Shown here piece after piece: positions 25,733 to 45,875 of a stretch of 64,000 nt of DNA (positions are counted from its first letter, which is position 1; every line of letters starts with the position of its first letter). Under the pieces are notes generated by a model. That model was not told where the DNA came from. It did no database searches and saw only the letters and a program-made list of their open reading frames with translations. The position numbers and the translations under genes were made by a program. The stretch covers positions 56,014 through 120,013 of the forward strand of contig DATGHL010000045.1 of NCBI GenBank assembly GCA_035308025.1, read 5' to 3'. This DNA comes from Candidatus Binataceae bacterium. GTDB taxonomy: Bacteria > Desulfobacterota > Binatia > Binatales > Binataceae.

Positions 25733-26242
25733 CTACGAGGCGTGGCCCTCGCTGCCGCTCACGAGCGTGGTCGGCTGGCCCGCCTGCTTCCACCCCTTGA
25801 TACCGTCGGCCATCACACTGACGTTTTCGTAGCCGGCTTTGACCGCCCGCCGGGCGGCCTCATGCGACGCCGTTCAAAGAGTGTTCGCGCAATAGAAGAC
25901 CAGCTTCGCCTTTTTGTCTTGCGGCAGTACGGCAAGGTCGTATTTGTTGTCGGAACTCAGCAGGGTTGCGGCCGGAATCACCCCATACTCTGCGCGCGTG
26001 GAGGCGCCGTTAGCGTCATAGATGTGCACCGGCGACTTGGTATCGTTCATCATCGCCTTCAAATCGGCGACGTGGATAATCGAGAAGGTTTCGAGCGTCG
26101 GATCGTTGTCTTCATGACCCAGCAGTTGCGAGAGATCGAACGCGCGCGCCGCCGGCGCGTAGTAACCGGCCGCCAGAATCGTGAGCGCGAAGGGCGCCGC
26201 CACCGTGAGTACACGGGCGAGTCCTCGTCTGATGATGCGCAT
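25733..26242 (-). CDS. exported rhodanese-domain sulfurtransferase with in-frame UGA (candidate selenocysteine) in the active-site loop
   Basis: ATG 26242 lies 9 nt after GGGAGG, giving the signal-like MRIIRRGLARVLTVAAPFALTILAAGYYAPAARA. The tracked ORF ends at TGA 25876-25874 after LVFYCANTL. The same frame continues as TASHEAARRAVKAGYENVSVMADGIKGWKQAGQPTTLVSGSEGHAS to TAG 25735-25733, which completes the rhodanese fold. Confidence 0.65.
25841..25859 (-). promoter_or_regulatory. SECIS-like hairpin downstream of the rhodanese UGA
   Basis: RNA GGCCGCCC-GGC-GGGCGGUC; 8 bp including one G-U. The stem starts at +15 after UGA and the loop sits at +23 to +25. Confidence 0.55.
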
Positions 26243-41904: not shown

Positions 41905-43578
41905 ATGGCCGACAACGACAAAACGATCGCGCAGGCGCGCAAAGAGTGGGCGGATAAGCGCGTCGCGCCGGCGCTCAAGCGCGGCGCCGAACGGCGCGAA
42001 CGCTTCGCGACCAGCTCCGGGATCGAGGTTAAACGCGAATACGATCCCGAGGATCTGAACGGCTTCGATTTCCTCAATGAGCTCGGTTTTCCCGGCGAGT
42101 TTCCCTTCACGCGCGGCGTGCAGCCGACGATGTATCGCGGGCGGCTCTGGACGATGCGCCAGTATGCGGGTTTCGGCGACGCGGAAGAATCGAATCGCCG
42201 TTATCGCTATCTGTTCGCCAACGGGCAGACCGGCCTTTCCGTCGCCTTCGACCTGCCGACCCAGATGGGACGCGATGCGGACCATCCACTCGCCCGCGGC
42301 GAGGTTGGCCGCGTCGGCGTCGCGATCGGCTCGCTTGAGGATATGGAGACGCTGCTAGCGGAATTGCCGCTCGACAAGATCTCAACCTCGATGACGATCA
42401 ACGCGACTGCATCGATACTGCTCGCGCTGTACCTGGTCGCGGCGGAGCGCCGGGGGGTCGGTTGGGACAAGCTCAACGGCACGATCCAGAACGACATCCT
42501 GAAGGAATATATCGCGCGCGGCACTTACATTTATCCACCGCGCGGATCGATGCGCATCATCACGGATATCTTCGCCTTCGCCAGCCGCGAGGTTTCGAAC
42601 TGGAATACGATCTCGATCTCCGGCTATCACATCCGCGAAGCGGGCTCGACCGCGGCGCAGGAACTGGCCTTCACGATCGCCGATGGGATCGCCTACGTCG
42701 AGGCGGCGATCAAGGCCGGGTTGAAGGTTGACGATTTCGCCAGCCGGCTCTCATTTTTCTTCAATGTGCACAACAATTTTTTCGAGGAGATCGCGAAATT
42801 TCGCGTCGCCCGCCGCCTGTGGGCGCGAATCATGAAAGAACGCTTCGGCGCGCGCGACGAACGCTCGATGATGATGCGATTTCACGCCCAGACCGCGGGC
42901 TCGACGCTGACCGCACAGCAGCTTGATAACAACGTCGTGCGCGTGACCCTGCAGGCGCTGGCCGCGGTGCTCGGCGGCGCACAATCGCTGCACACGAACT
43001 CGCGCGACGAGGCGCTGGCGCTGCCGAGTGAAAACTCCGCGCTGCTGGCCTTGCGCACGCAGCAGGTGATCGCACATGAGTCGGACGTCGCGGACACCGT
43101 CGATCCGCTGGGCGGGTCGTACTACGTCGAGACGTTAACGTCGGAGCTGGAACGCAAAACCCTTGAATACCTCGGCAAGATCGACGATCTCGGCGGCGCC
43201 GTGGCCGCGATCGAGCGCGGCTATCCGCAGCGCGAAATCCACAACGCCGCCTTCATCTATCAGCGCGAGATCGAACTCAAGCAACGGATCATCGTCGGCG
43301 TCAACGATTTCAAGACCGGCGTCGAGCCGCCCGCCGATATCCTCAAGGTCAACCCGGCGACCGAGGAGAAGCAATGCGCGCGGCTCGCGCGGATTCGCGC
43401 GGAGCGCGATCAAGTTGCAGTGCGCGTCGCGCTGGCGCGCGTCGAAGAGACTGCGCGTGGTGACGGCAATCTGATGGCGCCGATTATCGAAGCCGTGCGC
43501 AGTTGGGCAACGCTCGGCGAGATCGCGGATGCGATGCGCGTCGTCTTCGGCGAATATCGTCCGTCCAGTGAAGTCTAG
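41905..43578 (+). CDS. methylmalonyl-CoA mutase family, catalytic (N-terminal) subunit without B12-binding domain
   Basis: 557 aa; [39 protein letters not shown] and [12 protein letters not shown]. It ends before the cobalamin-binding module. Confidence 0.85.
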
Positions 43579-43677
43579 GTGAAATTTGCCGTGGTGCTCC
43601 GGATGACGCTTTATTCCGAGCCGTTGGTCTGAAACTATTGATGCAACATTCGGTGAAGGGCGGGGTACAGCGAATCG

Positions 43678-44241
43678 ATGGGGCCACTACCAAAAGGGGT
43701 TTTTCTCACCAAGGGCGTCGGACGGCATCGCGAAAAGCTCACGGCGTTCGAGCTGTCGCTGCGCTCGGCGGGTATCGCCGAGTACAACCTGGTCCGCGTC
43801 AAATCGATCTTCCCGCCCAACTGCAAGCTGATTGCGCCCGAAGAAGGCCGGCGTTACCTGACCCCAGGGCAGATCGTTTTCGCCGTGATGAGCGACAATG
43901 CGATCGACGAGCCGCATCGCCTGATCGCCGCCTCGGTCGGGGTCGCTATCCCAGCGAATCCGGCCCATTACGGCTACCTCTCCGAGCATCACAGTTACGG
44001 TGAGCCCGAGCAGAAGGCAGGCGACTACGCGGAAGATTTGGCCGCGATGATGCTCGCAACGATCCTCGGCGTCGATTTCGATCCCAATTCAAGCTACGAC
44101 GAGCGCAAGGATGTCTGGCGGGTGTCCGACAAGATCGTCAAGACCCGTAACGTCACGCAATCCGCGATTGGCGATCGCGACGGGCTGTGGACCTCCGTAG
44201 TCGCCGCCGCGGTTTTCGTCGATCTGCCCAACGGGAAATAG
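43678..44241 (+). CDS. pdaD: pyruvoyl-dependent arginine decarboxylase
   Basis: 187 aa; FLTKGVGRHREKLTAFELSLRSAGIAEYNLVRVKSIFPP parallels the PdaD/AaxB self-cleavage region. Confidence 0.65.
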   Translation: MGPLPKGVFLTKGVGRHREKLTAFELSLRSAGIAEYNLVRVKSIFPPNCKLIAPEEGRRYLTPGQIVFAVMSDNAIDEPHRLIAASVGVAIPANPAHYGYLSEHHSYGEPEQKAGDYAEDLAAMMLATILGVDFDPNSSYDERKDVWRVSDKIVKTRNVTQSAIGDRDGLWTSVVAAAVFVDLPNGK

Positions 44242-44280
44242 GATGCCGGACGGGCGCAACGAAAGCTGCGAAGTACTGCG

Positions 44281-44310
44281 TTGACATAAGTTCGGTGCGA
44301 CGGCTATTTG
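44281..44310 (+). promoter_or_regulatory. candidate sigma-70 promoter for the SelW-like gene
   Basis: Perfect -35 TTGACA (44281-44286), 18 nt, then TATTTG (44305-44310), about 35 nt upstream of ATG 44344. Confidence 0.3.
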
Positions 44311-44343
44311 AGTCGTGATGCGGGCCGTATTACTCTTAAGAAT

Positions 44344-44577
44344 ATGGCCACCGAAATCCTCTACTGCGTACCGTGAGGCTACGAAGCTCGGGCGGCCAGT
44401 CTGGCCGCGTCGCTCAAATCGCAATTCGGCGAAGACGTTCAAATCCGGCCCGGCAAGACCGGACAGTTTGACGTTATTACCGACGGTAAGAAGATCTTCT
44501 CCAAGGCCGATACTGGGCGCTTCCCGCTGGAAGACGAAGTGGAAGCGAAGTTCGGCGCTCTTCAGTCCCGCAGGTAA
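44344..44577 (+). CDS. SelW/Rdx-family selenoprotein (CxxU)
   Basis: Missed by the ORF track. ATG 44344 gives MATEILYCVP-U(TGA 44374-44376)-GYEARAASLAASLKSQFGEDVQIRPGKTGQFDVITDGKKIFSKADTGRFPLEDEVEAKFGALQSRR-TAA. This is the classical Rdx layout: beta1-CxxU-helix, then G.FeV..dG..ifSK...g.FP. Confidence 0.8.
44392..44408 (+). promoter_or_regulatory. SECIS-like hairpin downstream of the SelW-like UGA
   Basis: RNA GCGGCCA-GUC-UGGCCGC; a perfect 7-bp stem starting at +16 after UGA, with the loop at +23 to +25. Confidence 0.65.
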
Positions 44578-44906
44578 CCTTTAATTTCACCTCGCCCGAG
44601 CCTTGACCCCGGAGTGCTTGGCTGGTTAGCATTGGCACATTCTATGCTTTAGCATCATAGGATGGTAGCTGACGACCAACCTTGTTTTACCGACGCTTCT
44701 AGGCCAGATCGGCGACCATTAGTGAGGTCGGGTGACTAAAACGGTTGTTGTGGATAACCTCCCGCCTTATCCTATGCTCTGGCTTGTATTTACCTACGCT
44801 AGGTTATATTCACGGAAAATCTGGTGCGATCGTAGGCGGAAATGTTACAATGATGTTACAGGGCTAACTCACCGAAATGGCGGCCTGACTGAAAGGGATA
44901 ATAGGC

Positions 44907-45728
44907 ATGAGCAGCGCTTCAAACCTCAATTTCCTCAACCTCATTCAGGAACTGAAAGTCTTTGGCGAATTCGCGAAATTCGCAGGCAATGCCTGGACTT
45001 GGCCACTTGGCCGCCGCAGCAAGCATCCCCGCGTCATTCTACTAATCCCCGGCTTCCTGGCGGGTGACGCGACGCTCTATCCTTTCGCCAACTGGCTGCG
45101 CTCGCAGGGCCATCGAGTCTTCTTCTCGGGCATTCTGGCAAATATCGATTGTCCGCGTCGGGCCATGGATCGGCTCGGACGCATTCTGCAGGGATTGTAT
45201 GACCGTCACGATGAGAAATTAGTGGTGATTGGCCACAGCCTCGGCGGGGTCTACGCGCGGGAATTGGCGCGGCGGGCGCCCGATCAAGTCGAACAGACGA
45301 TCCTGCTCGCGTCGCCGGTCGGCAAGGTCGGGGAGCGGACGAACCCGTTCGTCCACATGCTCGCGACCTTCACGATGAAGTCGCAGGAATTTATGCGCGG
45401 ATGTTCGGGTGATCTACGCGATGTGTGCGGCGTACATTCGCCGACGCCGCCGCCGAACGTCCCCGAAGCGATCATCTTCTCGAAAGCCGACGGCGTGGTG
45501 GACTGGAGCAGTTGCCTGGAATCGGGTCCGAACGTTGAGGCCTTCGAAGTGAACGCAACCCATTGCGGCCTGCCCTACAATCTCGACACGCTGCGTATCG
45601 TGCACGATCTGATCGAGAATGGGCAGACGCCTCGCGAGCGCAAGGCGCGCGGCGGCAAAGCCTCGGTCAACAGCAAAGTGCCGTCTATTGGCAGCAGACA
45701 CGCCAACGGCGCAGCAGCCGCCTCTTAG
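44907..45728 (+). CDS. alpha/beta hydrolase, lipase/esterase-like
   Basis: 273 aa; GHSLGG nucleophile elbow and LLIPGFLAGD. Preceded by a 330-nt AT-rich spacer. Confidence 0.65.
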   Translation: MSSASNLNFLNLIQELKVFGEFAKFAGNAWTWPLGRRSKHPRVILLIPGFLAGDATLYPFANWLRSQGHRVFFSGILANIDCPRRAMDRLGRILQGLYDRHDEKLVVIGHSLGGVYARELARRAPDQVEQTILLASPVGKVGERTNPFVHMLATFTMKSQEFMRGCSGDLRDVCGVHSPTPPPNVPEAIIFSKADGVVDWSSCLESGPNVEAFEVNATHCGLPYNLDTLRIVHDLIENGQTPRERKARGGKASVNSKVPSIGSRHANGAAAAS

Positions 45729-45760
45729 CAGGCGGTTGAAAAAAAACTTCAACTGGAAGG

Positions 45761-45875
45761 TTGACGCAGCTCGCGGACCGCTAACCTCGGCCGCGCGCGT
45801 CGCGGACTCGTTTCCCGCGATGCAGCTCGCGGACTCGTCTCCCCCGACGCAGCTCGCGGACTCGCCTGCGCTACA
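45761..45875 (-). repeat. dispersed GC-rich repeat, locus E (four tandem core copies)
   Basis: TTGACGCAGCTCGCGGACCG (45761), GCGTCGCGGACTCG (45797), GATGCAGCTCGCGGACTCG (45819) and GACGCAGCTCGCGGACTCGCCTGCG (45846). Confidence 0.75.

Follow-up and report, generated by a model that had tools for sequence, protein, structure and literature searches.

Results

A predicted selenoprotein gene lies behind an arginine decarboxylase gene

The window analysed here is a stretch of 64,000 nucleotides from a Candidatus Binataceae genome (GCA_035308025.1, contig DATGHL010000045.1). On its forward strand, a short gene for a selenoprotein W (SelW)-like protein of the Rdx family follows the gene for a pyruvoyl-dependent arginine decarboxylase (Table 1). 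The frame starts with an ATG at 44344-44346, passes through ten sense codons to an in-frame TGA at codon 11, and closes with a TAA at 44575-44577. With the TGA read as U, the product is MATEILYCVPUGYEARAASLAASLKSQFGEDVQIRPGKTGQFDVITDGKKIFSKADTGRFPLEDEVEAKFGALQSRR. The preliminary description of this DNA had proposed this start, a TGA ten codons on and an N-terminus reading MATEILYCVP-U, and each of these details is found in the sequence. An independent Logan assembly of the source run matches positions 43867-45800 with 0 differences, and sequencing error is no serious option, since 80 orthologues are concordant.

The 77-residue frame is absent from the table-11 listing of open reading frames (ORFs). 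Shown in its place is an 89-aa ORF in a different frame (offset 1), exactly the wrong-frame ORF that the preliminary description had expected ORF finders to report.

The order of the genes for methylmalonyl-CoA mutase (PF01642), the arginine decarboxylase and the SelW-like protein (41905-44577) recurs in 73-75 of the 80 related loci, which may reflect lineage-specific synteny only. In the window, the decarboxylase stop is separated from the promoter-like boxes described below by about 60 extra intergenic bases.

Table 1. Features of the SelW-like locus (window positions) and Sec decoding genes elsewhere in the genome (contig:positions).
Feature	Position	Strand	Remarks
Pyruvoyl-dependent arginine decarboxylase, upstream neighbour	43678..44241	+	PF01862, 190.6 bits; directly upstream in 75/80 loci
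Putative -35-like box TTGAGT	44308..44313	+	TTG conserved at -35 to -33 from the A of the ATG across loci
Spurious 89-aa table-11 ORF	44315..44584	+	wrong frame; chance open frame in 62% G+C DNA
Putative -10-like box TACTCT	44331..44336	+	7 nt before the ATG; 17-nt spacer to the -35-like box
SelW-like / Rdx-family predicted selenoprotein CDS, 77 residues	44344..44577	+	ATG ... UGA (predicted Sec, codon 11) ... TAA
Putative redox motif Cys8-Val-Pro-Sec11 (TGC GTA CCG TGA)	44365..44376	+	aligns with the CxxC of Rdx proteins
Predicted Sec-encoding UGA codon	44374..44376	+	TGA in 79/79 sequences analysed; the sole tRNA with a UCA anticodon is tRNA-Sec
Candidate bacterial SECIS hairpin GCGGCCA-GUC-UGGCCGC	44392..44408	+	7-bp stem; apical loop GUC (G44399, U44400)
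selA	C12:32156-33487		551 bits
selB	C22:66111-68003		371 bits
selD	C22:68140-69066		384 bits; directly behind selB
tRNA-Sec, one copy	C12:186862-186957		Rfam 70.3 bits; ARAGORN anticodon TCA

The product belongs to the Rdx family

Searched with U entered as C, the protein scores 63 bits against the Rdx profile PF10262 (cut-off 22.6), with residues 4-67 on profile positions 3-69 of 74, and 55.1 bits against TIGR02174, CXXU_selWTH (cut-off 34.2). The Rdx-family pattern noted in the preliminary description, which had regarded missing Rdx similarity as an argument against itself, is thus recovered by both profiles. The NCBIfam equivalog NF041051 (SelTWH_Campy) is missed at 72.3 bits (cut-off 88), so the gene is placed only in the broader subfamily, outside NF041051.

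Of the proteins with a solved structure, human MIEN1/C17orf37 (2ljk; E 1.1e-11) matches the sequence best, ahead of bacterial SelW-related proteins. In the alignments to 2ljk, 2oka and 2obk, U11 falls on the second Cys of the CxxC motif, and both C8 and position 11 are invariant across an alignment of 41 orthologues. The AlphaFold2 model built from these orthologues has a mean pLDDT of 90.1 and a thioredoxin-like order of elements, b1-a1-b2-b3-b4-a2 (E3-7, H14-28, E32-36, E42-46, E49-53, H65-76), which places the CxxU motif between the first strand and the first helix. Foldseek superimposes the model on 2ojl, 2fa8, 2p0g and 2obk with TM scores of 0.86-0.90 and an rmsd of 1.1-1.3 Å. All of the top 22 matches belong to the Rdx family (SelW-related proteins, SAV_2001, MIEN1), and thioredoxins appear only at E>0.02.

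These results bear on the 89-aa ORF, which could be considered the real gene at this position if the Rdx similarity were irrelevant. While it is the only ORF of at least 60 aa that a standard ORF finder returns on the forward strand here, it has no Pfam match, against 63 bits for the Rdx frame. Its frame, moreover, contains one to four stops in 75 of 79 related loci and is open in only 4. We therefore regard a genuine 89-aa gene as vanishingly improbable.

At 77 aa, the protein of the window is a short form, as seen when its end (44545-44577) is compared with L021-L093; most orthologues have about 98-116 aa. The longer ones carry a C-terminal tail rich in Pro, Lys and Glu, e.g. ...ALKEGREPAPVEEKKPEGF...

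The in-frame TGA is conserved among relatives

A scan of species-representative genomes yielded 80 related loci, nearly all from metagenome-assembled genomes (MAGs) labelled Binataceae/Binatus or 'delta proteobacterium', together with two from Burkholderiales. In all 80, a TGA stands at codon 11, preceded by MATEILYC or near variants of it. It is the sole stop of the SelW-like frame in 77 of 79 orthologous loci, and the frame downstream of it runs on to a normal stop. Codons 2-8 show synonymous variation under a fixed peptide, with four different codons each for Ala2 and Thr3. This argues that selection acts on the protein over the ten codons ahead of the TGA, and that these are read in one frame with the downstream domain. 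Across the phylum, 62 of a sample of 301 genomes contain a match, and exactly one in-frame TGA is present in 55 of the 60 full-length matches.

This pattern is difficult to reconcile with a TGA that acts as a true stop, in which case the locus would be the decayed remnant of an Rdx gene, or would yield no more than a downstream fragment. Gene callers do agree with such a reading, and relatives are annotated as 56-58-aa proteins that start past the TGA. Against it stand the ten preceding codons, kept at the amino-acid level with synonymous changes over 80 loci, and the recurrence of the same 'stop' in every one of these loci and in the 55 full-length matches of the phylum sample. In addition, the window has no ATG, GTG or TTG start just past the TGA, because Leu20 is encoded by CTG, and in the AlphaFold2 model a truncated product would be without strand 1 and the CxxU motif. 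Termination at this TGA is thus very improbable, and a readthrough product with Sec at position 11 is the reading that we follow below.

Two of the loci, L094 and L098, lose the frame after GQF, from about codon 42 on (...GQFERPGRRPP...). They are either pseudogenes or carry single-base indel errors in the assemblies.

The wider family also includes Cys forms, to which the preliminary description had suggested a comparison. Among 50%-identity representatives, the motif was found in 120, of which 90 have CxxC, 22 CxxW and 3 CxxG. The U of the Sec forms aligns with the second Cys of the CxxC proteins, and a close Cys-form relative, P0017, is 55% identical and begins with MATQILYCGIC. Five Cys forms (P0024, P0034, P0040, P0086 and P0091) keep the peptide R-A-A-S-L-A, which is encoded by the hairpin in the Sec forms. 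This peptide may be a fossil SECIS that was left by a recent Sec-to-Cys conversion.

A conserved hairpin follows the TGA

The preliminary description had pointed to a hairpin 16 nt after the TGA, with a perfect 7-bp stem and a GUC loop. It lies exactly there, with its first base the 16th nucleotide after the TGA, and the same stretch also codes for Ala17-Ala-Ser-Leu-Ala-Ala22. On its own, the 17-nt hairpin folds with -12.0 kcal/mol (z = -3.4), a value reached by 0 of 200 shuffles. When the 67 nt or 42 nt that follow the UGA are folded, the z-scores are unremarkable in this GC-rich context (62% G+C), at -0.18 and -0.81. As only the 17-nt hairpin stands out, it is the comparative data, not the folding energy, that carry the case for a SECIS element.

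An alignment of 81 sequences covers the region between the TGA and +60 nt. In the 7-bp stem, 98% of the cells are paired; if the 3' partners are shifted by 1-3 columns, the share is 29-47%. Two stem pairs show compensatory double changes, from G-C to C-G and from C-G to G-C, and the G and U of the loop are invariant. Because the hairpin is so conserved, the covariation is modest, with 4 double-change cells in 560 among sequences that are related.

The hairpin overlaps the conserved peptide of helix 1 and the sequences are related, so part of its conservation is at the protein level. The codon entropies of Ala17, Ala18, Ser19, Leu20 and Ala21 are 0.39, 0.10, 0.00, 0.74 and 0.81 bits, compared with 1.6-1.8 bits for other conserved Ala residues, and for Ser19, all 77 sequences use AGT out of six possible codons. 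Synonymous variation is thus suppressed at codons 17-21, exactly over the hairpin.

The published model of the bacterial SECIS calls for a loop of 3-9 nt, a stem of 4-16 bp, a G in the first two loop positions, a distance of 16-37 nt from UGA to loop and an energy of at most -7.5 kcal/mol (PMC13188914). The hairpin agrees with all of these constraints: its GUC loop of 3 nt, the lower limit of the model, sits on a 7-bp stem 22 nt past the UGA, and its energy is the -12.0 kcal/mol given above. The SECIS check suggested in the preliminary description thus has a positive outcome, both in the agreement of the hairpin with the published model and in its conservation with compensatory changes. An Rfam scan of 43500-45500 at permissive E-values gave no match to a SECIS family and only a chance snoRNA match. 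Genome-wide, the core CCAGTYTGG at 15-24 nt after a TGA was found in the SelW-like gene and otherwise in chance matches only.

The genome encodes a complete Sec decoding pathway

The preliminary description had also counted a lack of Sec decoding genes as an argument against its reading. In the genome assembly (57 contigs, 3.63 Mb, 96.8% completeness), selA, selB, selD and a tRNA-Sec are all present (Table 1). The selD gene has an in-frame TGA of its own (...RCKAAG*AGKLGP), at what we take to be the catalytic Cys/Sec position of SelD, which suggests that SelD is itself a selenoprotein in this genome. One EF-Tu-like match flagged with '1 TGA' proved to be an ordinary tuf gene, where the TGA is the normal stop.

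TGA is the commonest terminator of long open frames in this genome (621 of 1279), the tRNA-Trp has the anticodon CCA, and no tRNA besides tRNA-Sec reads UGA. A variant genetic code is thereby excluded. The same findings weigh against the idea that the TGA of the SelW-like gene is decoded as one of the standard amino acids Trp, Gly or Cys, be it through a variant code or by near-cognate suppression. What speaks for it are public relatives that have W or G here, namely the CxxW and CxxG representatives counted above and P0002 (G). These letters are most simply explained as gene-caller output, and we infer that the CxxW and CxxG forms contain the same TGA, translated under tables 4 or 25. Moreover, the only tRNA with a UCA anticodon is tRNA-Sec, the Sec pathway is complete, and the putative SECIS is found at the canonical distance. 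A standard residue at position 11 therefore has only a very slight chance of being correct, and Sec is the preferred assignment.

Two further genes of the window contain in-frame TGAs. One encodes a rhodanese-like protein (...YCANTLU...; window position 25876, reverse strand), the other an AhpD/CMD-like protein (...NDCALU...; 49958, forward strand). Behind each of these TGAs lies a perfect hairpin, rich in GC and with a 3-nt loop that begins with G, at a distance like that in the SelW-like gene.

Promoter-like boxes abut the start codon

Upstream of the SelW-like gene, two sequences resemble the -35 and -10 boxes of a promoter and stand just ahead of the ATG. The arrangement TTG-N20-TAnnnT-N6/7-ATG occurs in 59 of 81 loci, compared with 0.09% at random anchors in the same loci; the loci are related. 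A Shine-Dalgarno-like site is absent in 55 of the 59 loci with the boxes and present in 18 of the 22 without them, and the two features are thus almost mutually exclusive. The arrangement fits an mRNA that begins with the A of the ATG, which makes a leaderless transcript plausible.

By a stricter consensus promoter scan, the boxes of the window are not called, and the sole match lies at 44603-44632, downstream of the gene. Genome-wide, a TAnnnT 6-7 nt before candidate ATGs is in weak excess (51 and 64 cases, against about 40), and by that crude test leaderless initiation appears to be no general habit of this genome. Of the transcript data, one soil RNA run shares 8% of words, with contigs that come from relatives. 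Over the SelW-like gene, this run has a single piece, in which 34 nt match the SECIS region inside unrelated sequence.

Discussion

A likely route from UGA to a Sec-containing oxidoreductase

Considering the conserved frame, the TGA fixed among relatives, the structured element behind it and the decoding genes in the same genome, we are highly confident that the SelW-like gene is real and that its UGA is correctly read as Sec; the actual insertion of Sec is what we infer from the sequences.

In the mechanism that we propose, translation would start at the AUG at 44344, and the ribosome would meet the UGA at 44374. The hairpin at 44392-44408, whose loop lies 22 nt past the UGA, would act as a SECIS that tethers SelB-GTP-Sec-tRNA(Sec) to the ribosome. 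Selenocysteine would then be inserted in place of termination, and translation would continue to the UAA at 44575. The predicted product is a small protein with a thioredoxin-like Rdx fold, in which Cys8-x-x-Sec11 is located where strand 1 meets helix 1. Judged by analogy to other Rdx proteins, this pair most likely cycles between the selenol/thiol and selenenylsulfide states, and the protein would serve as a thiol-dependent oxidoreductase.

How the transcript begins is a separate question. In the leaderless model, 6-7 nt separate the end of the -10 box from the ATG, and transcription would start at or next to the A of this codon. In that case, the UGA would be recoded no more than 30 nt from the 5' end, and the SECIS would span nucleotides +49 to +65 of the transcript. 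We tentatively suggest that the SelW-like gene has its own promoter and a leaderless mRNA in most Binataceae, including the one studied here, and that a minority has swapped this arrangement for a Shine-Dalgarno leader; judging from the upstream sequences, we rate this proposal at somewhat below an even chance. If it is true, the mRNA would offer a naturally occurring case in which to test recoding by SelB and SECIS on leaderless transcripts initiated by 70S ribosomes, a subject on which our literature search found no paper. The promoter at the ATG is the only possibly new element of the locus that might interest specialists or repay further work.

Consequences for annotation and for selenium use in Binataceae

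The value of the present analysis lies in the correction of an annotation and in the record of selenium use in Binataceae. The preliminary description had called the gene unannotated. This is true of the ORF listing of the window, where the gene is missed; the closest public relative, in contrast, is annotated, but as a truncated 58-aa 'Rdx family protein' (GCA_050736355.1, L100:745-921). There, the annotated start is a TTG inside the SECIS, while the true ATG, the CxxU and the TGA are found in frame 57 nt upstream (ATG-...-TGC-GTC-CCG-TGA). With a start inside the SECIS, the catalytic CxxU is lost from the annotated protein. Dozens of Binataceae MAGs probably contain the same truncation error.

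Together with a Sec-containing SelD and the two other redox genes with in-frame TGAs, the SelW-like gene would mark this uncultured, widespread and little-studied soil lineage as a regular selenium user, which bears on the redox physiology of these bacteria and on the trace-element ecology of soils. In our literature search, no paper was found that links Binatia or Binatota with selenoproteins.

Comparison with known systems

The SelW-like CxxU family of selenoproteins has been known since 2005. It was the most abundant selenoprotein family in the survey of the Sargasso Sea, with 48 genes (PMC1088965), is also listed in surveys of bacterial selenoproteomes (PMC1794560), and appears as PF10262 / CxxU, 'predicted with high confidence', in Table 1 of a 2026 review (PMC13188914). 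The family has few Cys homologues in organisms that decode Sec (PMC1088965, PMC1794560, PMC13188914), which matches the single TGA in 55 of 60 full-length sequences of our phylum sample.

The hairpin likewise resembles known elements. Its apical A-G-U-C-U fits the commonest form of the consensus bacterial SECIS, N1-G-[G/U]-N-N2 with N1 and N2 paired (bSECISearch model; PMC13188914 Fig. 2A). Compared with this consensus, the predicted Binataceae hairpin is very compact, with its perfect 7-bp stem and 3-nt loop. The SECIS of E. coli fdhF reportedly contains a bulged U, and the Binataceae hairpin is without one.

Among proteins of known structure, human MIEN1/C17orf37 (Rdx12, 2ljk) has the same fold (TM 0.76) and shares the signatures C-x-P-C/U-G-[FY]-E and G-x-F-[ED]-[VI] ... 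F-S-K ... G-x-F-P. It differs in being eukaryotic and longer (117 aa in the solved chain) and in having CxxC, with Cys instead of Sec. The Cys-type bacterial proteins 2fa8 (Agrobacterium), 2p0g (Vibrio), 2obk and 2oka (Pseudomonas) and 2ojl (Bordetella) have a backbone nearly identical to the predicted one, with the CxxC in the same place. However, these crystal structures have Cys for Sec, are 27-33% identical in sequence and are without the SelW/MIEN1-like signature F-S-K / G-R-F-P. Mammalian selenoprotein W (2npb) is a CxxU protein of the same Rdx family and fold class. Its similarity is weaker (E 0.09, TM 0.65), and it has a eukaryotic SECIS in the 3' UTR rather than a hairpin within the reading frame.

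The closest counterparts are thus the other bacterial SelW-like CxxU proteins, which are members of the same Pfam/TIGRFAM family, have an N-terminal CxxU and about 75-100 aa, and are encoded with a G-containing, small-loop SECIS after the UGA. From these, the Binataceae orthologue group is set apart by its invariant MATEILYC N-terminus, by its fixed synteny behind the pyruvoyl arginine decarboxylase and, in most members, by a promoter-like box that abuts the ATG. Taken together, the family, the motif and the type of SECIS are textbook knowledge in bacterial selenoproteomics and imply no new mechanism, and the Binataceae gene adds another member to a long-known bacterial family.
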